Source of the DNA: Eubacteriales bacterium
GTDB taxonomy: Bacteria > Bacillota > Clostridia > Oscillospirales > CAG-272
Assembly: GCA_045632405.1 (NCBI GenBank)
Contig: JAZQWO010000054.1
Location: forward strand, 2,291 to 66,290
Reading direction: 5' to 3'
DNA: 64,000 nt
Position 1 is the stretch's first letter, and each line of letters opens with the position of its first letter. The position numbers and the translations under genes are program-made. The notes beneath the pieces were generated by a model that worked only from the letters and a program-made list of their open reading frames with translations, did not search any database and was not told the origin of the DNA. Below are positions 2,905-57,574 of this stretch, piece after piece.

Positions 2905-3987
2905 ATGGAGTTTACATTCAAAAAAGGAATGGGCATTGGCGGTTGGCTAACCAACTACAAAAGATTTAACGTTTTGCCAAATGATAAGCGTTTGGAGTTA
3001 ACAATAGGCGACTATGAGCATTTTGATTCATACATTACTGAGTGGGACGTTATCAACATCAAAAATATGGGACTTGACCACATCCGCTTGGGCTTTGACC
3101 AGATTGTTTTAGAGGAATCTCCCTTTGTATACAGAGAGCGCACGATGGCTTTGGTGGAAAATTTTGTCAGCCTTTGCGAAAAGCACGGCTTGGGCATTAT
3201 CCTTAATTTGCATAAATGCATCGGCAACTACTGTGATATTGAAGAGGATGTTACTATTTTTGATAGCTCCGAGCTGCAAGAACGCTTTATTGCCCTTTGG
3301 CTTGAGCTTGAGCGTCGCTTCAAGGATAAAGAGAGCGTTATTTTTGAGCTTTTGAACGAAGTGCGTGACATTGAGCCAAATCTTTGGAATGATTTGGCTG
3401 AAAGAACTTTAAATGCTATAAGAGCGGTAAACAAATCAAGAAAAATCATAATAGGCTCAACCTGTTGGAATAATCCGAATAAGCTACACTCCCTTCGGGT
3501 TTTTGATGATGAAAACGTGATTTATACCTTCCATATGTATGACCCCTCAGAGTTTACGCATCAACGTGGAGTTTTGCATTGGAAGCAGCTTTATTACAAC
3601 AGAAAAATGGAATATCCTGCAAGCTCCGAGAAGTATCGCGAGTTTTACAAGCTCCTTTACGGAAACGAAAATGCGTATGCGGAGTTTGAGCGTGTTGACA
3701 TCAATTATATGCGCACTCTTTTTGAGCCTGTCAAGGAGTTCAAGAAAAAGAACCCTGATAAAATACTTTGGCTTGGAGAGTTTGGCACAATCCGCCACGC
3801 AGATATAAAAAGCCGTGAAAATTGGATGAGGGATGTTATCACTCTTGCGCGCGAATGTGATGTGCCATACTGCGTTTGGAATTACCTCAGCACGCCAAAC
3901 GATGGCAACCGCTTCAGCTTGGTTGACGACGATACAAGAGAAATTTTGAGCGCGGAAATGCTCAAAATCATCAACGGAGAATTTTAA
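2905..3987 (+). CDS. glycoside hydrolase family 5 (cellulase/mannanase-type) protein
   Basis: I chose the start at ATG 2905, behind an AAGGAGAG RBS; the track ORF starts at 2875. Motifs are GIGGWLTNY, the acid/base motif LLNEV and the nucleophile motif WLGEFG. Confidence 0.8.
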   Translation: MEFTFKKGMGIGGWLTNYKRFNVLPNDKRLELTIGDYEHFDSYITEWDVINIKNMGLDHIRLGFDQIVLEESPFVYRERTMALVENFVSLCEKHGLGIILNLHKCIGNYCDIEEDVTIFDSSELQERFIALWLELERRFKDKESVIFELLNEVRDIEPNLWNDLAERTLNAIRAVNKSRKIIIGSTCWNNPNKLHSLRVFDDENVIYTFHMYDPSEFTHQRGVLHWKQLYYNRKMEYPASSEKYREFYKLLYGNENAYAEFERVDINYMRTLFEPVKEFKKKNPDKILWLGEFGTIRHADIKSRENWMRDVITLARECDVPYCVWNYLSTPNDGNRFSLVDDDTREILSAEMLKIINGEF

Positions 3988-4089: not shown

Positions 4090-4941
4090 ATGACAAAAGC
4101 TATTCTGAAAATACTCTCACTAATATTGGCTTTTATTTTGCTCGTACCGCTGGTGATTGCTTGCGGAGAGGAAAACCCCGAAAACGAGCAAACCGCGCTT
4201 CAACGCTTCGAGAAAATGAGCGAATACGAAAAAGCGTTTTTCATTCTGACAAATGATATTGCTGTAAAGAAAATCAGATCCGATGCTACCGCTAACGTTG
4301 CCTGCAAATATAAAGGCTATTCCCTTGTGGCATCCTTAGTTGGATTTACGGTGGAAATGGATGATGAAGCGGAATATTTTCTCTATTCCGAGCAAACCCT
4401 TTCATTAACAATTGCCGGTGGCTCGCAGGTTACACTTGCCAAGCAGGGCTATGCCGATGGAAAGGAATTTATATACACCGCCACCAACGGCTCAGGCAAG
4501 GGCTATTATGCGGAGTCAACAGTTGAAGCGATCAAAGAAAAGCGCCGCAAGCAGCTCGAAAGCGGTCCTGCCGATGACTTTGGTTTAAACGCTTCTAACT
4601 GCCAGGCGGCCTGCACACAAAATGCACACGGCGGTTGGGTTGCTACCTTTACAAATGTCGGCACAGACAGCTTGGGAGAGTTCAAAAAATACATTGATAT
4701 GTCCTTTGGCGACATTCTTGATTCATCCGACCTTATGGGAGTTACCTTAGAGGTTATTGTATCTGCAAATCTTAAGCCTGTTTCCATTAAGCTGGACTAC
4801 ATCTTTAAAGATGCAAATACAAAGCTCACGGTGGAATCAACCTTCACAATTGATGACGATGTTGAGCTACCAACGGTTGACTTGACAGGCTACACAAAAA
4901 AGTCAAGCCTTGGCAATAATTCACCGGGCGTTGGCATGTAA
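4090..4941 (+). CDS. lipoprotein of unknown function (paralog of 5553-6401)
   Basis: Signal peptide with lipobox LVIAC. Clear protein similarity to the next-but-one gene (DDFGLNASNCQ...GGWVATFTNVG versus DDFGLTKDNCQ...GSWVATYTDVT). Confidence 0.75.
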   Translation: MTKAILKILSLILAFILLVPLVIACGEENPENEQTALQRFEKMSEYEKAFFILTNDIAVKKIRSDATANVACKYKGYSLVASLVGFTVEMDDEAEYFLYSEQTLSLTIAGGSQVTLAKQGYADGKEFIYTATNGSGKGYYAESTVEAIKEKRRKQLESGPADDFGLNASNCQAACTQNAHGGWVATFTNVGTDSLGEFKKYIDMSFGDILDSSDLMGVTLEVIVSANLKPVSIKLDYIFKDANTKLTVESTFTIDDDVELPTVDLTGYTKKSSLGNNSPGVGM

Positions 4942-5552: not shown

Positions 5553-6401
5553 ATGAAATCATTCACACTGAAACTATTATCACTAATGTTGGTTTGCTTT
5601 ATGCTTTTGCCAATGCTGTTTGCCTGCGGCGAGGAAGAAACACCGCCATCAAGCAATCCGCCCGCCAATGACAAATTAAGTCAATTCGAGGCTATGAGCG
5701 AAAAGGACAAGGCAATCTACATATTAACAACAGATTACGATGACAACGGAAAAATCAGCGGAGATATGAAGCTATCTCTATCCTGCAACTATATGGGCTA
5801 TGCAATTTCTGCCATAGTCAGCGGCAAAACCGTACAGATTGACGCTGATGGCACCTATGTTGACTACACAGAAAGCACAATGTCTATGACAATGGCAGGT
5901 CAGTCCCAGGTTAGCACATCCAAAAGCGGTTACATTGACGGCAAGGAATTCTCATACGTAGAGGTTGACGGCGTGGGACAAGGCGAATACTCCGCAACCA
6001 CAAAAGAGGACTACATTGCAAACAAGGATGACGAGGACCAGGACACCGTTGATGACTTTGGACTTACCAAGGACAATTGCCAGACTATTACCTGCTCCAA
6101 AAACAGCCAGGGCAGCTGGGTAGCAACCTATACTGACGTGACGGAAGAGGGCTTGGCTGAATTCAAGGAGCTTTTAGCGTCCTTTGAGGGTCTTATCAGT
6201 GCGGACGATTTGGTTGATGTAGTGGTTACTCTTACTGTATCAAGCACTCTTCAGCCTATGGGAGTCAAGGTAGCCTTTGAGTTTAGCGGCGAAAACCCAC
6301 CTGTGCTTACTCTTGATGCCACATATGCCATCGGCAATGACGTAGAAGTGCCTGATATCGACTTTTCAACATTCACCGACAAGTCTGCTCCAAACCTATA
6401 A
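5553..6401 (+). CDS. lipoprotein of unknown function (paralog of 4090-4941)
   Basis: Start at ATG 5553, behind an AAGGAGAG RBS. Lipobox LFAC. Same domain order as 4090-4941. Confidence 0.75.
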   Translation: MKSFTLKLLSLMLVCFMLLPMLFACGEEETPPSSNPPANDKLSQFEAMSEKDKAIYILTTDYDDNGKISGDMKLSLSCNYMGYAISAIVSGKTVQIDADGTYVDYTESTMSMTMAGQSQVSTSKSGYIDGKEFSYVEVDGVGQGEYSATTKEDYIANKDDEDQDTVDDFGLTKDNCQTITCSKNSQGSWVATYTDVTEEGLAEFKELLASFEGLISADDLVDVVVTLTVSSTLQPMGVKVAFEFSGENPPVLTLDATYAIGNDVEVPDIDFSTFTDKSAPNL

Positions 6402-16670: not shown

Positions 16671-16850
16671 AAAAAATCCACCTGTGCTTCAGGTGGCGAA
16701 AAACGGCAGGGAGTGTCCATAAAACACGCCCAAAAGCCAACAACCTCTTCCATCCGGACTATCACCGTCGGTCTCGGAGTTGCACCGAGTCAACGCGCAC
16801 GCGCTTGCGGACTATACCGCCGATAAGGAATTACACCTATCCCTGAAGTA
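16671..16850 (-). promoter_or_regulatory. FMN riboswitch (RFN element) with terminator expression platform
   Basis: The minus strand reads CTTCAGGGATAGGTGTAATTCCTTATCGGCGGTATAGTCCGCAAGC...CTCGGTGCAACTCCGAGACCGACGGTGATAGTCCGGATGGAAGAG. It is followed by GCCACCTGAAGCACAGGTGG-TTTTTT. Confidence 0.9.
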
Positions 16851-16874
16851 TTACTATTTTATTCGTTTTTTAAT

Positions 16875-16970: not shown

Positions 16971-17990
16971 ATGGAAAAGAAGCATATTTGTATTTTACAC
17001 ACAGGCGGCACTATCGGTATGGTGCGCAGCCAGCAGGGCTATTTGCCAAAAAGCGGTTATTTGGAAACTGCGCTTTCTGCTATTCCCGACCTTATGGCAG
17101 AAAGCATGCCCCATTATACATTTGTTGAAATGAATCCCTTGCTTGACTCCTCAGATATGGCGGTTAACGACTGGAACAAGATAGGCGAGGAAATTGCGAA
17201 AAGATATGAGGACTTTGACGGCTTTGTTGTTCTGCACGGAACGGACACTATGGCATATACTGCCGCCGCACTTTCCTTTATGCTAAAAAACCTTAACAAG
17301 CCTGTTGTTTTGACAGGCTCGCAAATTCCACTTTGCGAGGTTAGAAGCGACGGTGTGGATAACATTGTCACCTCATTGATAATTGCGGGGGACGCCCGTG
17401 TGCGCGAGGTTTGCCTTTACTTCGGTGGTAGGCTTTTGCGTGGCAACAGAGCAACAAAAATGTCGGCTGACGGACTTTTGGCATTTGATTCTCCAAACTG
17501 TCCGCGTCTTGCAGAAGCAGGCATCAGCATAAGGTACTTGCCTGTGCCACCCCCACCAAAGTGTGACGAGGGAGCGCCCCTTACCCTTTGCAAATTTGCA
17601 GATGTGCCAATCGGCGTTTTGAAGGTTTTCCCCGGTATCAGCTTCCCTATTTTCGATAAATTGATGACGGAAAAGCTACGCGGCATCGTGCTTGAAACCT
17701 TTGGCGCAGGCAACATTCCGGGCGAGGGCGATAGCCTTTTGCCTATTATCAGAAAGGCATTTAATGCAGGAAGTGTTGTGGCGGTTTGCTCACAATGCCC
17801 ACAGGGCACGGTTTCCTTGGGCACTTATGCCACAAGCTCCCCCCTCAAGGATGCAGGTGCTGTCAGTGGCTTTGATATGACAACGGAAGCCGCAGTTGCC
17901 AAGCTCTACTACCTCTTTAGCCAAGGCTTTTCCAAGGAAGAAATTAAACGCTTGATGGAAGAGAACCTACGCGGAGAACTAACAAAGTAA
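16971..17990 (+). CDS. ansA: type I L-asparaginase
   Basis: Motifs ILHTGGTIGM and HGTDTMAYTAAALS. Confidence 0.9.
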   Translation: MEKKHICILHTGGTIGMVRSQQGYLPKSGYLETALSAIPDLMAESMPHYTFVEMNPLLDSSDMAVNDWNKIGEEIAKRYEDFDGFVVLHGTDTMAYTAAALSFMLKNLNKPVVLTGSQIPLCEVRSDGVDNIVTSLIIAGDARVREVCLYFGGRLLRGNRATKMSADGLLAFDSPNCPRLAEAGISIRYLPVPPPPKCDEGAPLTLCKFADVPIGVLKVFPGISFPIFDKLMTEKLRGIVLETFGAGNIPGEGDSLLPIIRKAFNAGSVVAVCSQCPQGTVSLGTYATSSPLKDAGAVSGFDMTTEAAVAKLYYLFSQGFSKEEIKRLMEENLRGELTK

Positions 17991-18137
17991 ATTTCACATA
18001 CCGTTGATTTACCTTTACTACCCTTCCACCGCTTTTGTTGCTTCATGCTAATTTACTGTGAGTGCGTTGCGGTCCCCCTCCCCTCACAAGTGGAGGCAAA
18101 AACGGAAGAAAATTTGCGCGGAGAACTAACAAAATAA
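17991..18137 (+). repeat. family-2 intergenic element (core about 18021-18096) plus a second, diverged copy of the last 33 nt of ansA (18105-18137)
   Basis: The signature CCCTTCCACCGC...CGTTGCGGTCCCCCTCCC-loop-GGAGGC is homologous to 32961-33046. The sequence 17958-17990 recurs at 18105-18137 with 5 mismatches. Confidence 0.75.
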
Positions 18138-18143
18138 AAGTAT

Positions 18144-18171
18144 AAAAGTCCGACACGTGTCGGACTTTTTT
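18144..18171. terminator. bidirectional rho-independent terminator
   Basis: AAAA-GTCCGACAC-GTGTCGGAC-TTTTTT. Confidence 0.8.
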
Positions 18172-31587: not shown

Positions 31588-32958
31588 ATGGCAACAGTAA
31601 AAAAAGAGCTTACCAAGCTGACCCCTCAGCTTATGTCTTATGTAGATAAATGCTCAATGAACACTACTATTGACCCTGAGCTATACACAAAATTCAATGT
31701 AAAGAGAGGCTTGCGTGACGTTGACGGTAAGGGCGTTGTGGCAGGTCTTACGGAAATTTCCGAAATCAACGCATTTTTAAATTGCGGTGAGAGCAAAATC
31801 CCCTGTGACGGTGAGCTTTACTACCGTGGCGTTAACATACAGGAGCTTGTTGGCGGCTTTTTGGCTGACGACCGCTTTGGATTTGAGGAAGCTATCTATC
31901 TTTTGCTTTTTGGTGCTTTGCCAACAAAGGAAGAGCTTTCTGACTTTGACAGCCTTTTGAAAAGATACAGGAGCTTGCCAAAGAATTTTGTCCGCGACGT
32001 GCTTATGAAGGCAAGCGGCAAGGACATGATGAACATTTTGGCGCGCAGTGTGCTCACCCTTTATGCCTTTGACGACAAGGCGGATGACACATCTATCCCT
32101 AACGTTTTGCGCCAATCATTGCAGCTTATTTCAGAATTACCGCTTTTAGCGGTTTACGCTTACAAGTGCTATGAATATTACGAAAAGAAAAAGAGCCTTG
32201 TTATTCACCAGCCTAAAAACAATTTATCTTTGGCGGAAAATATTCTTTATATGCTTCGTGATGACGGAAAATTCACTCCATTGGAAGCAAAAATCCTTGA
32301 CCTTGCTCTCGTTTTACACGCTGAGCACGGCGGCGGTAACAACTCCACATTTACAACACACGTTGTCACATCCTCAGGCACTGATACATATTCGGTAATT
32401 GCCGCATCCTTAGGCTCCTTGAAGGGTCCGCGCCACGGTGGTGCAAACGCCAAGGTTGTGGAAATGATTGACAACATAAAGAAGAATGTTAAAAACTACG
32501 GCGACGAGGAGGAAATCAAGAGCTACCTCACCAAAATACTTAACAAAGAGGTGTTTGACGGCAAGGGCTTGATTTACGGTATGGGTCACGCGGTTTACTC
32601 TCTTTCCGACCCACGTGCTATGATTTTCCGTGACTTTGTGGAAAAGCTCTCACGTGAAAAGGGCAAGGAAAAGGACTATCTCCTTTGCTCAACCATTGAG
32701 CGCGTTGCTCCTGCAGTTATTGCCAAGGAAAGAAAGATTTACAAGGGCGTTAGCGCCAACATTGACTTTTACAGTGGCTTTATTTACAATATGCTTGGCA
32801 TCCCTCGCGAGCTGTTCACCCCTATATTTGCAATTTCACGTATTGCAGGCTGGAGCGCACACCGTATGGAAGAATTGTTGCTTAACGGAAAGATTATCCG
32901 TCCTGCATATCAAAATATTTCACCAAGAGCGCCCTATACACCGCTTGAAGAAAGATAA
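31588..32958 (+). CDS. citrate synthase
   Basis: I chose the start MATVKKELT at 31588, behind a GGAAGGAG RBS. Motifs LVLHAEHGGGNNSTF, GPRHGGA and YGMGHAVY. Confidence 0.9.
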   Translation: MATVKKELTKLTPQLMSYVDKCSMNTTIDPELYTKFNVKRGLRDVDGKGVVAGLTEISEINAFLNCGESKIPCDGELYYRGVNIQELVGGFLADDRFGFEEAIYLLLFGALPTKEELSDFDSLLKRYRSLPKNFVRDVLMKASGKDMMNILARSVLTLYAFDDKADDTSIPNVLRQSLQLISELPLLAVYAYKCYEYYEKKKSLVIHQPKNNLSLAENILYMLRDDGKFTPLEAKILDLALVLHAEHGGGNNSTFTTHVVTSSGTDTYSVIAASLGSLKGPRHGGANAKVVEMIDNIKKNVKNYGDEEEIKSYLTKILNKEVFDGKGLIYGMGHAVYSLSDPRAMIFRDFVEKLSREKGKEKDYLLCSTIERVAPAVIAKERKIYKGVSANIDFYSGFIYNMLGIPRELFTPIFAISRIAGWSAHRMEELLLNGKIIRPAYQNISPRAPYTPLEER

Positions 32959-33107
32959 TACACACTCCCTCCACCGCGGATTTTGTTTTAGCTGTATTAC
33001 TTGCTCATACGTTGCGGTCCCCCTCCCTCGAAGAAGGAGGCTGGGTGTCCTGCATATCAAAATATTTCACCAAGAGCGCCCTATACACCGCTTGAAGAAA
33101 GATAATA
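32900..33107 (+). repeat. 61-nt perfect direct repeat of the citrate synthase 3' end (32900-32960 and 33047-33107) flanking an 86-nt family-2 element (32961-33046)
   Basis: Both copies were compared base by base. The element carries CCCTCCACCGCGG...CGTTGCGGTCCCCCTCCCTCGAAGAAGGAGGC. Confidence 0.85.
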
Positions 33108-33135: not shown

Positions 33136-33160
33136 GGCAGTCGGTAAACCGACTGCCTTT
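33136..33160 (+). terminator. terminator following the second citrate synthase 3'-end copy
   Basis: GGCAGTCGG-TAAA-CCGACTGCC followed by TTT. Confidence 0.6.
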
Positions 33161-33274
33161 GTATATTTTAACAATTTTTATATTTTGCATAAATTTTTAA
33201 ATAAAATGCTTGAATATTTATGTAATATGTGATAAACTTACTATGTAACTAAATCGAAACCCAAGGAGGGTACT

Positions 33275-38706: not shown

Positions 38707-39092
38707 CGTGGCGCTATTAGCGTGATACTCTTAACGGAGTATCACGCCGTCAAATCCGTCTTCGACGGGTGAAATCCACCTACGGTGGATGAAATCGCTT
38801 TCGCGATGAAATCCTGCTTCGCAGGGTTGTTTTTAGACGGATTTGATTTCATCCAAGGCAACGCTTTGGATTTCATCTGAACGAAGTGAAGATTTCATCG
38901 TTGCTGTGCAACGATTTCATTAAACCAACAGAAAAAGAGGAAACTTTTCGGCTATTAACCGATTTGTTTCCTCTTTCTGTTTGTATAGGGGTTTGGGCTT
39001 AGCCCATTTGCGTTTGACTAGTCAAATGCGATGCTCGCACTTAGCGGTGTTTTCAAATTCTCCGCTAAGAATATCACACATTTAGCGCCACG
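38707..39092 (+). mobile_element. 356-nt TIR-bounded non-coding structured element (38722-39077) sitting between the arms of the feo terminator stem (38707-38716 / 39083-39092)
   Basis: TIRs are GTGATACTCTTAACGGAG and CTCCGCTAAGAATATCAC. Ladder C (GATGAAATC / GATTTCAT) spans 38749-38920. The outer stem CGTGGCGCTA/TAGCGCCACG has a T7 run on the minus strand. An inverted homologous copy lies at 42887-43242. Confidence 0.7.
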
Positions 39093-42872: not shown

Positions 42873-43256
42873 ACGGCAGATATAGGGTGATGTCCTTAGC
42901 GGAGAATTATTGCTTTGACAAAAGTGCAAGCATCGCATTTGACTGGTCAAACGCAATATGGGCTAAGCCCAAACCCTTATTACAAGCAGAAAGAGAGAAC
43001 AAATTGGGAAAACCGAAATGTCCTCTCTTTTTCTGTTGGATAAATGAAATCGTGGTTGAACCACGATGAAATCTTCGCACGGCTCAGATGAAATCCAAGG
43101 TCAAGACCTTGGATGAAATCAAATCCGTCCGAGCTTAACCCTGCGAAGCAGGATTTCACCGCGAAGCGATTTCATCCACCATAGGTGGATTTCACCCGTC
43201 GAAGACGGATTTGACTGCGTGATACTCCGTTAAGAGTATCACTCTATCTCTGCCGT
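42873..43256 (-). mobile_element. inverted second copy of the 356-nt structured element (42887-43242) between the arms of the EF-G-like gene terminator stem (42873-42885 / 43244-43256)
   Basis: The reverse complement aligns over its full length with 38722-39077 and has the same length. The first 26 nt are identical. The outer stem ACGGCAGATATAG/CTATCTCTGCCGT differs from the stem at the other copy. Confidence 0.7.
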
Positions 43257-50123: not shown

Positions 50124-52295
50124 TTATTTCTTAACCTTGTAAGTAACGTGAATTGCTTGACCGCCTGTCAAAAGAAGCATTTCAACAGCAGGAACTGAGA
50201 ATTCACCAGCCTTAACTCTGAGAGGCTTGTCAATGATACCTCTTGCAAGAACCTTAACACACTTAGCCTTCTTATCGATAAGCTTCTTGTCCTTCATAGA
50301 CTGAATTGTAACAAGCTCGTGTGCCTCATAATTCTTAGAAAGTGTATCAACATTAATGATTGCCTTCTTGTTGTCCTTAGGACCGATATAGTCAACGCTT
50401 TCCTCAACGTGAAGCTCAACATGCTTTTCTTCAACAATCTGGTGAGCTTCCTCTGCGCTAACGCTTTCAACAACGATTTCAGGCTCTACGTAAGGAACTT
50501 CCTCTACCTCTTCAACAACAGGCTCTTCGACAACTGGCTCTTCAACCACAGGCTCGGGAACAACCTCAACAACAGGCTCTTCAACCACTGGCTCGGGAAC
50601 AACCTCAACAATTGGTTCAACGATTGGCTCTTCCTTAGGCTTTGTGGACATAACAACTACTGCATCATCAGCAATAAGTGCCTTGATCAGCTTGCGAGCA
50701 AGAAGTGGCTCGTTTGGCTCATATGGGTACTTAGCAACATAATCAACTGTCTTTGCCTTTTCATCCTTTTCAATGCCGAACTTAGCCATTGTGATATCAA
50801 CAAGCTCTTTTGCCTTTCTAAGACCAAGACCACTCTTAATCTTAACAAGCATTGGAACATCCTCGAATATCTTAGCATCAATTGGCTCGTGGTGATACTT
50901 GGACTCGTCAAACTCATTTGGATCAAGGGCACAGTAGAGACAAATTGTCTTGCCGCGGAGCTTAACCTTGAAGAGCTGATCTCTACCTCTGTTATAGCTA
51001 TCGAACTTCCAGCTAATTCTGGACTTAACACCCTTGTAGGAAAGGATGTGGTTCTTGAGCTCACTGTAATAATCCTTAACAGTATCGTCGCTCTGAATGA
51101 GATTAGCGGTGAAGCTACGGCTATATTTGATGTCAATTCTGTTTCCTTCATTATCATAATATGTAGGAACAAGAACGCCATCTGCGTCCTCAGCAGGTGC
51201 AGGCTCAGTAGCAGTCTCTTCAACCACCGGCTCTTCGACAACCTCAGCAACCGGCTCTTCGACAACAGGTTCTTCAACCACAGGCTCTTCGACAACCTCA
51301 GCAACCGGCTCTTCGACAACCTCAGCAACTGGCTCTTCTACAATTGGTTCTTCAACCACCGGCTCTTCGATAACCTCAACAGGCTCTTCAACCACCGGCT
51401 CCTCGACAACAGGCTCGGGAACAACCTCAACAATTGGTTCAACAACAGGCTCCTCTGCCTTAGCTGCCTCAATTGCGTAAAGCGGAATTGTGAATACGGA
51501 GTCAATTTCTCCTCTTTCAATAACAACATCACCGTCAGGAACAACACTCCAGCCAAGGAATCTGTCGCTTTCGTCAAAGTCGTTAGGAAGTCTGAGCTTG
51601 AAGTAGTGAGACTCCTTATAAAGAACTCTATCCTCGCTTGTAAGTGTGTAAGCAATATCAACTACACTCTCGCCAAGGAATGGCTCGTCGCTGACAACAA
51701 TGTCGCTATCCTCAAGTGCCATAACAGGATAAAGGTTGATTGTGAACACATAGTTTTCATGTCCGTCCTTGAAAGCAATGTCACCGTTTGGCTTGAAGCC
51801 CCAGCCGAGAACGTCTGCTTCAGGAAGAACTGCGTTGAGTCTAAAGCCCTCGCTCGCGATAACCACGTCTGTTTGAGTGTCAACATAGTTAAACTTAACG
51901 CATACGCCCTCGGAGTAATCAAGCTCGTCAACAGGGATAGCGCGCTTTTCAACAGGAGTGGACTCAACAACAGGAGCTTCAGCCCAGATAGCATATAACT
52001 TTATGCCATGCAAAACAACTATTTTATGCTTAGTAAGAGGCTTTTTGCCGCCGGGCTTCTTGCTCCAGCCAACAAGTCTCTTTCCTTTCTTTGACGCACT
52101 GTGAATCTGTGTAGATGAGAGCCACGGGCGTTTTTCTCTAAAAATTTCTTTATTGCCATCGTCACCGTCTAAGTATACAACCTGACAACGCACAACAAGG
52201 AACAAAATTGCCAAAAGAAGTGCAATACCAAGAACAACGGCGCATCCAATTATGCTAAGGTTGAAAATATCGATGGCTGCAAACATGTTTGTCAT
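50124..52295 (-). CDS. membrane-anchored repeat protein: three InlB-B-type repeats, two acidic P/V/E linkers, a central unknown domain and a C-terminal uL15-like domain
   Basis: I chose the start MTNMFAAIDIF at 52295, behind GGATGGAG; the track ORF starts at 52355. The C-terminus KVLARGIIDKPLRVKAGEFSVPAVEMLLLTGGQA follows the ribosomal uL15 C-terminal pattern (KILGNG.L.K.LTVKA.KFS.SA.EA.EAAGG). Confidence 0.7.
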   Translation of the reverse strand: MTNMFAAIDIFNLSIIGCAVVLGIALLLAILFLVVRCQVVYLDGDDGNKEIFREKRPWLSSTQIHSASKKGKRLVGWSKKPGGKKPLTKHKIVVLHGIKLYAIWAEAPVVESTPVEKRAIPVDELDYSEGVCVKFNYVDTQTDVVIASEGFRLNAVLPEADVLGWGFKPNGDIAFKDGHENYVFTINLYPVMALEDSDIVVSDEPFLGESVVDIAYTLTSEDRVLYKESHYFKLRLPNDFDESDRFLGWSVVPDGDVVIERGEIDSVFTIPLYAIEAAKAEEPVVEPIVEVVPEPVVEEPVVEEPVEVIEEPVVEEPIVEEPVAEVVEEPVAEVVEEPVVEEPVVEEPVAEVVEEPVVEETATEPAPAEDADGVLVPTYYDNEGNRIDIKYSRSFTANLIQSDDTVKDYYSELKNHILSYKGVKSRISWKFDSYNRGRDQLFKVKLRGKTICLYCALDPNEFDESKYHHEPIDAKIFEDVPMLVKIKSGLGLRKAKELVDITMAKFGIEKDEKAKTVDYVAKYPYEPNEPLLARKLIKALIADDAVVVMSTKPKEEPIVEPIVEVVPEPVVEEPVVEVVPEPVVEEPVVEEPVVEEVEEVPYVEPEIVVESVSAEEAHQIVEEKHVELHVEESVDYIGPKDNKKAIINVDTLSKNYEAHELVTIQSMKDKKLIDKKAKCVKVLARGIIDKPLRVKAGEFSVPAVEMLLLTGGQAIHVTYKVKK

Positions 52296-52343
52296 TATCT
52301 CCATCCGCCTTTCTTTGTCATAAGACATATAAATTGTAATTTT

Positions 52344-52372
52344 ATTATACAACACTGAATTTTTTTTGTCAA
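52344..52372 (-). promoter_or_regulatory. promoter of the repeat protein gene
   Basis: TTGACA, 17 nt, TATAAT on the minus strand. Confidence 0.55.
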
Positions 52373-54994: not shown

Positions 54995-57319
54995 TTGAAT
55001 TTAAAGGAGCTTATTCTTGATTTAGTAAATCAAAATGAATATATTCCACTCTCCCCTAACGAAATGCTGTCCTTTTTCAACGATGGTGGACAGGAGATTG
55101 ACGACGGGGATTTTTGGAGAACTATACAGGAAATGGAGGGCGAGGATTTTTCCATTGCCTTTTCACGCAAAAACAAAATTTTATCAGCCGAGCGCCTGGG
55201 TCAGTACAAGGGTGTGTTTTCCGCATCCGCCAAGGGTGGCTTTGGATTTGTAACCACAGAGTCGGGCGAATTTTTCATTCCCCCGTCTCTTACCTTCTGC
55301 GCACTTTCCGGTGACACGGTTGTTTGCAAGCGCCTCGAGCGCTCCTCTCGCTTTTTCGGCAAGGGCAACGAGGCGGAGATTATTGCAATTTTGGACAGAG
55401 GAGTCAGCGAAATTATAGGCACTCTTACCATATATAATAACGGCAGAGGTAACGCAGGGCACATCACCCCCGACAACGAAAGAATCAAGCCGTCTGTTTT
55501 GGTGTCATCAAAGGCGCTTCAAGGCGCTATGCACGGCGACAAGGTTGTAGGTAAAATCATCAGCTATCCAAAAACGGAAAACGACCCTATCAGATGTGAA
55601 ATCACCGAGGTTTTGGGTCGTGCCGATAGCCAAGAAGCAAACTACCGCGCGGTTTTACACTCCAACGGCATCACCGTTGGCTTCCCACAGAGCGTGCTTG
55701 ACGAGGCAGAGGCGGTTAGCCAAGAGAAACTAGATATAGGTGACAGGCTTGACTTGCGCGACAAAATCATTTTCACCATTGACTCCCACGAGGCAAAGGA
55801 CTTAGACGATGCCATTTCCTTAGAGGAAACAGAGGACGGATACCTACTTGGCGTTCATATTGCAGATGTTTCCCACTATGTGCGTGAAGGGTCGCGCCTT
55901 GATAAAGAAGCTCTTTCACGAGGAACAAGCGTTTACTTCACCGACAAGGTTGTGCCTATGCTGCCGAAGCAGCTATCAAACGGTATTTGCTCTTTGAACG
56001 AGAAGGAAGACCGTTATACTCTTTCCGCCCTTATCTCTCTTGACAAGCGAGGCGAGATTGTTTCCTGTCAAATTGCAAATTCGGTTATAAACTCCAAAAT
56101 AAAGGGTATTTATGCGGAGCTAAACGACATTTTGGAAAAGGATGAAAATAGCGAATTTTACGAGAAATACGCACACGTTATCAAGGATTTTTACAAAATG
56201 TACGATTTGTACAAGGCTTTGAAGCAGAAAAGCGACAAGCGAGGAGCTATGGAGCTGGAGAGCGAAGAAACCAAAATTATTCTTGACGAAAACGGACACC
56301 CTGTTGAAATCGTCAAGCGTGAGCGCGGCGAGAGCGAGCGACTTATTGAGCAATTTATGCTCTGTGCAAACGAAGCGGTTGCCACATATCTTTATAATGC
56401 AGGAATGCCTTGCGTTTACAGAGTACACGACGAGCCTGATATGGAAAAGATTGGCGCATTTTCCCTTTTTGCAAGGAATTTAGGCGTTGACACCTCACCC
56501 TTGAGAACTAAAAATAAAATCACCTCGTCACAGTTGAACAAGGTGCTTGAGAGCGCAAAACAGAAGGATTGCTTCCCTATTGTTTCTTCGATTTTGCTCC
56601 GCTCACTTATGAAAGCGCGATACTCCCCTCTGCAAAAATCTCATTTTGGACTTGCAACAGAGTATTACTGTCATTTCACCTCTCCTATCAGACGTTACCC
56701 CGATTTAACCGTTCATAGAATTATCAAGGCTATGCTTGACGGCAAAATAACCGAGGAGACGGTTAGCGGTTATGAGGACTTTGCTGCCCATTCTGCTCTT
56801 TTGTCAAGTGACAACGAGGTAAAGGCGGTGCACGCGGAGCGCGATATTGACGACCTATACAAGTGCGTTTATATGCGTGACCGAATTGGCGAGGAGTACG
56901 AGGCGGTGATTTGCTCCGTTACATCCTTCGGATTTTTTGCAAAGACGAAAAATCTGTGCGAGGGTCTTGTTTCTGTTGACTCCTTGGGTGGCGGCTTCTT
57001 CTATGACAGAGATAACTACACCCTTTCCCGTGGAAAGACAGTTTACCGCTTGGGTCAGCGCGTCAAGATAAAGGTTGACGATGTTGATATTGCCGCTCGT
57101 CAAATTAACTTTTATTTAATAAAGGAAGAAAAGGGCGCAGAGGACAAGGGCGAGGAAAATGCTCCCGTAGCCTTTGAAAAGCCAAGACGCCAAAAAGGTG
57201 AGGACAAGCCATACCGCCGCGAAAGGTCGCGAGCCCCAAAGCACAAGCGACGCATATTTGAAACCTTTATGCAGTTTGAACAAAAGCACAAAAGGAAGCG
57301 CACCAAAAAGCGCAGATAG
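54995..57319 (+). CDS. rnr: ribonuclease R
   Basis: I chose the TTG start at 54995, 6-7 nt after a GGAGGG RBS; the track ORF starts at 54977. RNB domain (IDSHEAKDLDDA), a C-terminal S1 domain and a basic tail. Confidence 0.9.
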   Translation: MNLKELILDLVNQNEYIPLSPNEMLSFFNDGGQEIDDGDFWRTIQEMEGEDFSIAFSRKNKILSAERLGQYKGVFSASAKGGFGFVTTESGEFFIPPSLTFCALSGDTVVCKRLERSSRFFGKGNEAEIIAILDRGVSEIIGTLTIYNNGRGNAGHITPDNERIKPSVLVSSKALQGAMHGDKVVGKIISYPKTENDPIRCEITEVLGRADSQEANYRAVLHSNGITVGFPQSVLDEAEAVSQEKLDIGDRLDLRDKIIFTIDSHEAKDLDDAISLEETEDGYLLGVHIADVSHYVREGSRLDKEALSRGTSVYFTDKVVPMLPKQLSNGICSLNEKEDRYTLSALISLDKRGEIVSCQIANSVINSKIKGIYAELNDILEKDENSEFYEKYAHVIKDFYKMYDLYKALKQKSDKRGAMELESEETKIILDENGHPVEIVKRERGESERLIEQFMLCANEAVATYLYNAGMPCVYRVHDEPDMEKIGAFSLFARNLGVDTSPLRTKNKITSSQLNKVLESAKQKDCFPIVSSILLRSLMKARYSPLQKSHFGLATEYYCHFTSPIRRYPDLTVHRIIKAMLDGKITEETVSGYEDFAAHSALLSSDNEVKAVHAERDIDDLYKCVYMRDRIGEEYEAVICSVTSFGFFAKTKNLCEGLVSVDSLGGGFFYDRDNYTLSRGKTVYRLGQRVKIKVDDVDIAARQINFYLIKEEKGAEDKGEENAPVAFEKPRRQKGEDKPYRRERSRAPKHKRRIFETFMQFEQKHKRKRTKKRR

Positions 57320-57367
57320 TTCTCTTGTAAAGCAAACGTTTTTGCGCTAAAAAACCATACAAAATAT

Positions 57368-57489
57368 GCCTTCTCCAGCGGAGAAGGGGGACCAAGCTTG
57401 CTTGGTGGATGAGGAGAGCATTTTTAGATTGCACTATTTTGTCCTCCTCATCCGTCTGCTTCGCATCCACCTTCCCCGCTGGGGAAGGC
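57368..57489 (-). repeat. family-2 intergenic element, reverse orientation, larger variant
   Basis: The reverse complement ends ...CTTGGTCCCCCTTCTCC-GCT-GGAGAAGGC. Hairpins are CCTTCTCC-AGC-GGAGAAGG, GGATGAGGAG...CTCCTCATCC, TGC-TTC-GCA and CCTTCCCC-GCT-GGGGAAGG. Confidence 0.65.
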
Positions 57490-57574
57490 TTTTTAGTGCA
57501 TCAGCCCCTTTTTGTTGAACTTCAAATTAAGCGTTCATCCGTTTGGATAAATTTTAAAACATTCAATAAAAACC

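Follow-up and report, generated by a model that had tools for sequence, protein, structure and literature searches.

Repetitive extragenic palindromes of Proteobacteria (REP, BIME and REPIN elements) are mobilised by RAYT transposases, and in Escherichia coli REP elements sit right after stop codons. We know of no REP or REPIN insertion that duplicates tens of target bases. Known MITEs (miniature transposable elements with inverted repeats) generate target duplications that are short and constant in length (2-10 bp) and fade over time. Here, we analysed a 64,000-nucleotide stretch from a Eubacteriales bacterium (contig JAZQWO010000054.1; hereafter the window, to which all positions without a locus label refer), in which an 86-nt element lies directly behind the citrate synthase gene gltA, enclosed by two copies of the gene's end. 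We conclude that this arrangement is a real feature, namely a REP/MITE-like, non-autonomous repeat that is set apart by long gene-end duplications, long persistence and concerted evolution of the duplicates. Prokaryotic MITEs are shorter than 500 bp, non-coding and intergenic, carry a short terminal inverted repeat, are flanked by direct repeats of the target, give rise to transcribed structured RNA and show presence/absence polymorphism (PMC10969869). Like the MITEs Correia, RUP, bcr1 and MITEAba12, the element is small, non-coding, intergenic, transcribed, multicopy, flanked by direct repeats and polymorphic. In contrast to them, its duplications measure 40-90 bp, vary in length and have been kept similar over long divergence, and its orientation shows a strong bias with respect to the gene upstream. 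Among bacterial elements, only IS1549 and IS1634 have been reported to generate long and variable direct repeats (8-514 bp) upon insertion, for which there is no mechanistic model (PMC2266710). The element shares long, variable direct repeats with the IS1634 family, but IS1549 and IS1634 are autonomous DDE insertion sequences of 1.5-2 kb from Mycobacterium and Mycoplasma, and no such transposase was seen near the elements.

The gltA coding sequence (CDS; 31588..32958, forward strand) was assigned from the list of open reading frames (ORFs), its homologs and its translation, which starts with MATVKKELTK. The ORF is listed from 31507; we adopted the 456-aa version, which matches the length of the homologs, each of 456 aa and carrying PF00285. 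The final 59 nt of the gene, including the TAA stop codon (32956-32958), plus 2 nt constitute copy 1 (32900..32960, +), which is translated. The same sequence recurs as the untranslated copy 2 (33047..33107, +), with 61 of 61 positions identical at a period of 147 nt, and weaker similarity continues to 32965/33112. Sequence reading and a repeat finder thereby confirmed the initial annotation, which had described the perfect 61-nt repeat, the make-up of its first copy and the 86 nt between the copies, including the GGTCCCCCTCC core; the two copies were further defined by allele comparison. The annotation was equally right in placing the terminator behind the second copy and not the first, as the sole terminator-like site is a hairpin with a 9-bp stem (33136-33157) followed by a T-rich tail (33136..33167 in all, +).

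The element itself (32961..33046, +) is supported by a covariance model built on 28 related copies (84.8 bits), by alignment, by pair counts and by its absence from two empty alleles (L031 and L032, see below). It begins with a 5' arm, CTCCCTCC (32965-32972, +), followed by hairpin 1, in which ACCGC (32973-32977) pairs with GCGGT (33014-33018) across a 36-nt variable loop (32978-33013). Hairpin 2 pairs CCTCCCTC (33022-33029) with GAAGGAGG (33033-33040), and the tail CTGGGT (33041-33046, +) completes the element, which we refer to as long-loop. No promoter was found within it. An assembly artefact is excluded, as independent assemblies (L028-L030, L033 and L034) as well as DNA and RNA contigs span copy 1, element and copy 2; the same arrangement is present in DNA contigs of several bovine gut metagenomes. 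The 13-mer of the element core occurs three times in the window compared with 0.48 occurrences expected by chance. The third match (5254, minus strand) lies inside a CDS and was dismissed as a chance match. Besides gltA and the asparaginase gene ansA, no further direct repeats of this design were detected in the 64 kb.

The origin of the duplication became evident from gltA alleles on contigs encoding an identical or near-identical 456-aa protein. In the empty alleles L031 and L032, a single gltA end leads directly into the flank (TAATAGGTAC... / TAATAGGTACAAATTTC...) and then into the terminator. The occupied alleles (window, L028, L029, L030 and L033) consist of gene end, 86-nt element and gene end, followed by the same flank. 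Identical gltA protein is encoded by both empty and occupied alleles of one species. The insertion is polymorphic within the species, and the duplicated 61 nt are target sequence, because the empty alleles show one gene end joined to the same flank. The gltA body leads without a break into copy 1, and copy 2 without a break into the ancestral 3' flank. A plain tandem duplication unrelated to the element, named in the initial annotation as the outcome that would contradict its reading, was not observed in the empty alleles, from which element and second copy are both missing. Precise loss through the repeats had also been anticipated, and the empty alleles of the same species indeed keep exactly one 61-nt copy that runs into the downstream flank. 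Excision within a sample is invisible in Logan contigs, since an empty allele makes no new 31-mers if the repeats are identical.

In a gltA tree computed without the duplicated 61 nt, the two empty alleles nest among the occupied alleles of one species (≤2.9% nucleotide divergence). The more distant alleles L034 (11% diverged) and L014 (18.5%) are occupied, and their duplication begins at the same base (GTCCTGC/GTCCGGC). In the partial locus L016 the start precedes that base by one, or coincides with it if the last nucleotide of the element is that C. Two further relatives, L035 (17% diverged) and L036 (24%), are empty at gltA. The simplest reading of these sequences would be one old gltA insertion, followed by secondary losses or by import of empty alleles.

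In four bovine metatranscriptomes, contigs run continuously through copy 1, element and copy 2 (32902-33078). This places the element in the gltA 3' untranslated region (3'UTR), where it is co-transcribed with gltA. The depth of the RNA contigs over the element equalled or exceeded that over the gltA body, reaching approximately fivefold in one run; such contigs contain no information on strand or RNA ends and hide rare forms, and their depth reflects RNA abundance poorly. A joined RNA that skips the 147 nt, as by splicing or by a self-splicing intron/IStron, was not found in the four metatranscriptomes, whose contigs drop rare forms.

The second occurrence in the window, at ansA (16971..17990, +; 339 aa; homologs with PF00710 and PF17763), has the same design, as had been annotated. 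Copy 1, comprising gene end and stop (17957..17991, +), and copy 2 (18104..18138, +) are identical at 30 of 35 positions and surround the same core. Four codons differ, all of them synonymously, and both copies encode EENLRGELTK*. The long-loop element (18018..18102, +) was assigned by alignments and by the covariance model (73.3 bits), and the terminator (18144-18169, +) follows copy 2. The sequence behind copy 1 (17992-18017, +) is a probable diverged remnant of duplicated ansA 3'UTR, as judged from its resemblance to the 3'UTR of L158. The ansA period reaches 147 nt solely via this 27-nt remnant. As the longer UTR of L158 resembles the 27 nt after copy 1, the ansA duplication probably measured ~62 nt originally, similar to the 61 nt at gltA. 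The proposed common period of 147 nt thus holds for both loci of the window but not as a constant, given that periods in the family range from 124 to 173 nt, mostly from 142 to 156 nt; the shared value is a matter of similar duplication and element lengths. All six ansA relatives (84-91% identity) are empty, and their layout of stop, short UTR and CCGACAC...GTCGG terminator matches copy 2 of the window with its flank. Directly upstream of ansA, on the opposite strand, lies an FMN riboswitch (98.7 bits, 16738-16854, -).

A pattern scan with one genome per species yielded 27 loci, of which 25 were real, all of them from metagenome-assembled genomes (MAGs) of uncultured gut Clostridia, Oscillospiraceae or Eubacteriales. 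Altogether, ~30 long-loop elements were collected from ~19 independent loci with differing flanking duplications, which we estimate to represent ~19 independent insertion events; one MAG, SIG635, contributes at least nine copies. Nearly every copy follows the same plan: a gene end, sometimes including its terminator, an element of 81-86 nt and a repeat of that gene end, with duplications of ~40-90 nt whose variable length is implied by the periods. The 3' junction is fixed, with copy 2 starting 20-24 nt past ...CCCCCTC. The 5' junction is ragged and lies 0-13 nt ahead of CTCCYTCC. By eye, no microhomology was seen at the junctions.

Most copies share a characteristic position. An ORF of the same strand precedes 29 of the 31 long-loop copies, and in 13 of these the element is at most 9 nt away from the stop codon; nearly all long-loop elements are located 0-30 nt past a same-strand stop codon or its terminator. 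In L003, L004, L012, L024, L026 and L027, the element directly follows a terminator hairpin with its T-run. Two copies are found away from gene 3' ends, one antisense at a gene 5' end (L020) and the other (L022) upstream of a sigma-70 promoter in a gap flanked by divergent genes. A location exactly at a stop codon, as suggested in the initial annotation, does not apply to every copy, given those behind terminators as well as L020 and L022. Orthologous loci of different MAGs (gltA, jag/khpB, L019/L023 and L010/L013) have the same left boundary. Tandem arrays of up to three elements and four gene ends occur in L006, L007, L018, L023 and L024, as unequal exchange between direct repeats would produce. 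In the L007 array (4208-4714), the internal gene-end copies differ nonsynonymously (ESGA, ENGA, ESEA and ESKA), and in one of them TAA has become CAA, so that the stop codon is lost. The array also contains the ends of two contigs from one MAG, including the contig end at L002, an example of how these repeats break short-read assemblies. Plasmid and phage collections contained no match to the element. A single match on a viral contig was located inside a CDS and was rejected as a chance hit.

Although copy 2 is not translated, it remains gene-like. Over all loci, codon differences between copy 1 and copy 2 comprise 64 synonymous and 24 nonsynonymous changes, whereas unconstrained drift of an untranslated copy should result in a ratio of roughly 1:3. 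Translation of copy 2 by stop readthrough was discarded, as a TAG is met after 10 codons, and so was translation from the GGAGG-ATG present in some copies, which is spaced too tightly, not conserved and often out of frame. In the species of the window, the polymorphisms CGT/CGA, GCG/GCA and CCC/AAA occur in copy 1, in copy 2 or in both, in all combinations, as well as in empty alleles. Copy 2 of L034 encodes the C-terminus of another lineage (APYVPIEERK, as in L014). These patterns point to gene conversion between the copies, combined with homologous exchange with element-free alleles, as the processes that would keep copy 2 gene-like. A template/variable repeat pair of a diversity-generating retroelement (DGR) was also considered and rejected: the copy differences are of all types, mostly synonymous and not adenine-specific, and no reverse transcriptase is encoded at the fetched loci.

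Sequence conservation within the element is uneven. Hairpin 1 is invariant in the long-loop alignment, and hairpin 2 has compensatory changes in its inner pairs, for which none of 500 shuffles reached the observed score. Between L034, which was retrieved via its protein and hence without bias from the DNA pattern, and the window, the core is identical at 39 of 39 positions and the loop at 16 of 28. On this comparative evidence, the hairpin core is constrained and the loop drifts. A weak terminal inverted repeat of 7-8 nt (CTCCYTC...GAGGGAG) is positioned a few nucleotides inside both ends and doubles as a strand of hairpin 2. At the variable position of hairpin 2, A, T and G occur at similar frequencies, and the type of mismatch does not tell which strand is functional. 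Predicted folding was no more stable than that of shuffled sequence, with z values of -0.3 to -1.0, near zero on both strands. Searches of Rfam with the window, the element, the L105 composite (see below) and the inverted doublet (see below) at gathering and permissive thresholds returned no family, and weak matches to TCV_Pr and plant miRNAs were spurious. The literature searched on its core motif, on target duplications of great length, on REP elements in Clostridia, on RAYT genes of Firmicutes and on MITEs located at stop codons provided no description of the element.

A metagenome scan for the 3' domain revealed at least 120 loci that carry a two-hairpin module, whose compact form reads CTCCYTCC-ACCGC-(2-6 nt loop)-GCGGT-CC-CCTCCCTC-(3-5 nt loop)-GAGGGAGG-C. 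The length of loop 1 is bimodal, either 2-6 nt or 33-36 nt, and the element of the window is a long-loop variant of this much commoner, REP/MITE-like module, which is found widely among gut Clostridia. The compact form also occurs directly after stop codons (e.g., that of Lon in L127), in either orientation, and it is combined with other GC-rich hairpin modules into mosaics in L105 and L127. In addition to both long-loop elements, the covariance model recovered an inverted doublet of diverged compact modules in the window (57363-57416, -, 33.6 bits; 57444-57494, +, 20.2 bits). Separated by 27 nt and pointing towards each other in a REPIN-like arrangement, the two copies are located downstream of the ORF that ends at 57319. 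Covariation links their stems to the canonical module, and no flanking duplication is visible at 57363-57494. Among the compact copies, only L044 has a repeat; it was set aside as an [X + element] unit that is simply duplicated in tandem, which is a different design.

The module thus resembles REP, BIME and REPIN elements in being a short, GC-rich, extragenic hairpin module that is typically located just past stop codons, co-transcribed, multicopy and non-autonomous, and in forming mosaics (L105 and L127) and an inverted doublet. It differs from them by the duplication of tens of target bases, by its hosts, which are uncultured gut Clostridia, and by the long-loop subfamily with a variable hairpin-1 loop of 33-36 nt. 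A RAYT (Y1 HUH) or IS200-type gene was not seen in the fetched loci. Measured against the features of the known classes, the family has the extragenic palindromes, mosaics and doublets of REP elements, and lacks both the features of att-type integration and of DGRs and the short, fixed-length target duplication of MITEs. Two further observations concern the hairpins themselves. L105 has, between cobalamin-biosynthesis genes, four copies within 10 kb of a multi-hairpin composite repeat of ~190 nt that ends in the module (540-740, 2230-2410, 3084-3320 (-) and 6123-6150 of that locus), and both orientations occur; the repeat contains covarying long-range stems (e.g., GGGAGTAGT...ACTACTCC) and has no Rfam match. 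In L001, L015, L018 and L034 (three loci, L001 and L015 being orthologous), the loop contains GGCGGTGG or GGCGGTAT and then a T-rich run. Together with the 5' CCACCGC, such loops are predicted to form a terminator-like hairpin, and some copies may have turned into terminators.

A small gene for a DUF559 protein, a Vsr-like PD-(D/E)xK endonuclease, recurs near compact modules in seven contexts, and an eighth locus, L084, has two weaker matches. The associated loci are L047 (251-1300), L102 (929-1616), L048, L055, L122, L049, L108, L151 and L154. In five of the seven contexts the module is downstream of the gene in reverse orientation, and in L047 and L102 it abuts the stop codon. These two loci have a unit of ~690 nt in common, composed of promoter region, DUF559 gene, module and further hairpins. 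L048, L055 and L122 display the same two ends without the DUF559 ORF. By its organisation, the unit resembles an autonomous element with MITE-like derivatives that arose by internal deletion, and no candidate partner protein other than DUF559 was seen for this family of repeats. A DUF559 gene was found neither in the window (by tblastn) nor at the long-loop loci; it is tied to compact composite forms only. For the long-loop elements, ORF clustering and a Pfam batch scan in search of a partner protein gave housekeeping neighbours only.

A defined unit of 81-86 nt has inserted together with a target duplication of 40-90 nt, is polymorphic, forms arrays and exchanges sequence between its flanking copies. 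We consider it probable, at about 0.68, that these properties reflect a non-autonomous mobile repeat that inserts at the DNA level with target cuts staggered by ~60 bp. The earlier alternative of a very long staggered or primed insertion beside a stop codon fits both the empty-allele and the duplication data. At gltA, the element would have inserted just beyond the stop codon, between target nicks ~61 bp apart, and gap repair would have duplicated the final 59 nt of gltA plus 2 nt. Copy 1 completes the gene, and copy 2 is the original gene end, still attached to the original terminator. Recombination between the direct repeats would lead to precise loss of the element and to empty alleles, and unequal exchange to arrays of alternating gene ends and elements. 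Gene conversion and exchange with element-free alleles of other strains would keep copy 2 like the working gene end. The insertion between widely staggered nicks would be carried out by a mobilising enzyme that acts in trans. With its 86 bp, the element is stiff relative to the persistence length of DNA, and one might speculate that its two ends cannot meet, so that the attack sites would lie several helical turns apart.

Several observations weigh against insertion at the DNA level. Among 99 ORFs around the long-loop copies (25 loci, up to 8 kb), all of them housekeeping, there was no transposase, reverse transcriptase or integrase, and no autonomous partner or enzyme for the long-loop elements was identified in the fetched loci. 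Duplications of 40-90 bp are far beyond the known range of bacterial MITEs, and the only precedents, IS1549 and IS1634, are mechanistically unexplained (PMC2266710). Flanking duplications are essentially limited to the long-loop subfamily, most compact relatives being without them. The inverted repeat near the ends is short, and an internal hairpin shares it. Neither the co-orientation with the upstream gene nor the clustering after stops and terminators is expected from random DNA insertion, and the biased placement and orientation therefore call for selection or some target preference; because GC skew tracks local gene orientation, replication and transcription are not separable as references for the element's orientation. 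Finally, direct repeats of such length are expected to vanish fast, yet the gltA insertion persists across ~18% nucleotide divergence, which implies selection for the element or frequent re-acquisition.

A much less likely explanation is an RNA-mediated, SINE-like retroelement (SINE, short interspersed nuclear element). Its RNA would be trimmed back to hairpin 2 and reverse transcribed by an enzyme that jumps onto the 3' end of a host mRNA, past the stop or at the terminator, or that is primed on a nicked target. The resulting cDNA of gene end and element would be built in at the homologous gene end, generating duplications and tandem arrays. Like non-LTR (long terminal repeat) retrotransposons and SINEs, which move by target-primed reverse transcription, the element is short, transcribed and non-autonomous and has variable duplications of tens of bases, with an exact 3' and an uneven 5' junction. 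The junctions agree with such a route: a precise 3' junction, located 20-24 nt past CCCCCTC and ~5 nt beyond hairpin 2, is paired with a fuzzy 5' junction that contains 0-13 nt of filler and falls 0-12 nt past stops or right after a terminator and T-run, where mRNA 3' ends are expected. It would also account for the co-orientation of 29 of 31 copies and for the presence of the element in mRNA, at ~5x gene-body depth in one run, although contig depth is no good proxy for RNA abundance. Unlike eukaryotic SINEs, however, the element has no A-tail, and in our data neither a reverse transcriptase near any copy examined nor 5'-truncated copies nor transduced foreign sequence behind the 3' end of the element were found. 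Moreover, sense mRNA 3' ends are unexpected in the contexts of L022 and L020.

Slightly less probable again is a 3'UTR module selected by the host, as an RNA-stabilising or terminator-like hairpin cassette, with the gene-end duplication as a by-product of its arrival. This explanation concerns function and is compatible with a mobile repeat. It would be in keeping with the conserved core and drifting loop, with persistence at orthologous sites through ~18% nucleotide divergence despite deletion-prone repeats, with co-transcription at or above gene-body depth and with the location right after stop codons, as for E. coli REP elements. Several loops have, moreover, independently gained GGCGGTGG plus T-run, which is terminator-like with CCACCGC (L001, L015, L018 and L034). 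Against it stand the empty alleles that coexist within one species, the lack of the element from close relatives and a predicted folding whose stability does not exceed that of shuffled sequence.

Replication slippage that simply doubled gene ends in tandem, independently of the element, or an att-type integration scar is very improbable as an explanation, even if direct repeats around an insert and the duplicated [X + element] unit of L044 might suggest it: at ~19 loci the element sits exactly between both copies with a fixed 3' junction, empty alleles lack element and second copy alike, the repeats differ at every locus without a common att core, the fetched loci contain no integrase nearby, and the copy differences do not have the adenine specificity of a DGR pair. 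The att-type site-specific integration favoured in the initial annotation was accordingly abandoned, as the repeats are derived from the target and locus-specific, the insert is only 81-86 nt long, the 86-nt one having no ORF, and neither an integrase nor another mobility gene is near any copy at the fetched loci.

Two other features of the window deserve mention. Two matches to the Gut-1 RNA (RF01706) exceed the gathering score (38747-38817, +; 43148-43217, -) and fit an origin from gut Clostridia. A long run of degenerate 15/24/39-nt repeats (...GGCTCTTCAACNAC...) extends from 50473 to 51446 inside the large overlapping ORFs 50124-52355 (-) and 50319-51998 (+), and probably encodes a repetitive low-complexity protein.

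Small bacterial repeats such as REP and MITE are usually thought to insert with few or no duplicated target bases. If a family regularly duplicates 40-90 bases, in this case including the final 10-25 codons of housekeeping genes, this would be a sign of an insertion mechanism that has so far gone unrecognised. On the practical side, the elements break short-read assemblies at gene ends, and the spare copies of gene C-termini are ignored by annotation pipelines. For the gut Clostridia that harbour it, the family would be a natural system for repeat-driven loss, amplification and concerted evolution, for an untranslated gene fragment that is kept by recombination, and for the role of 3'UTR hairpins.

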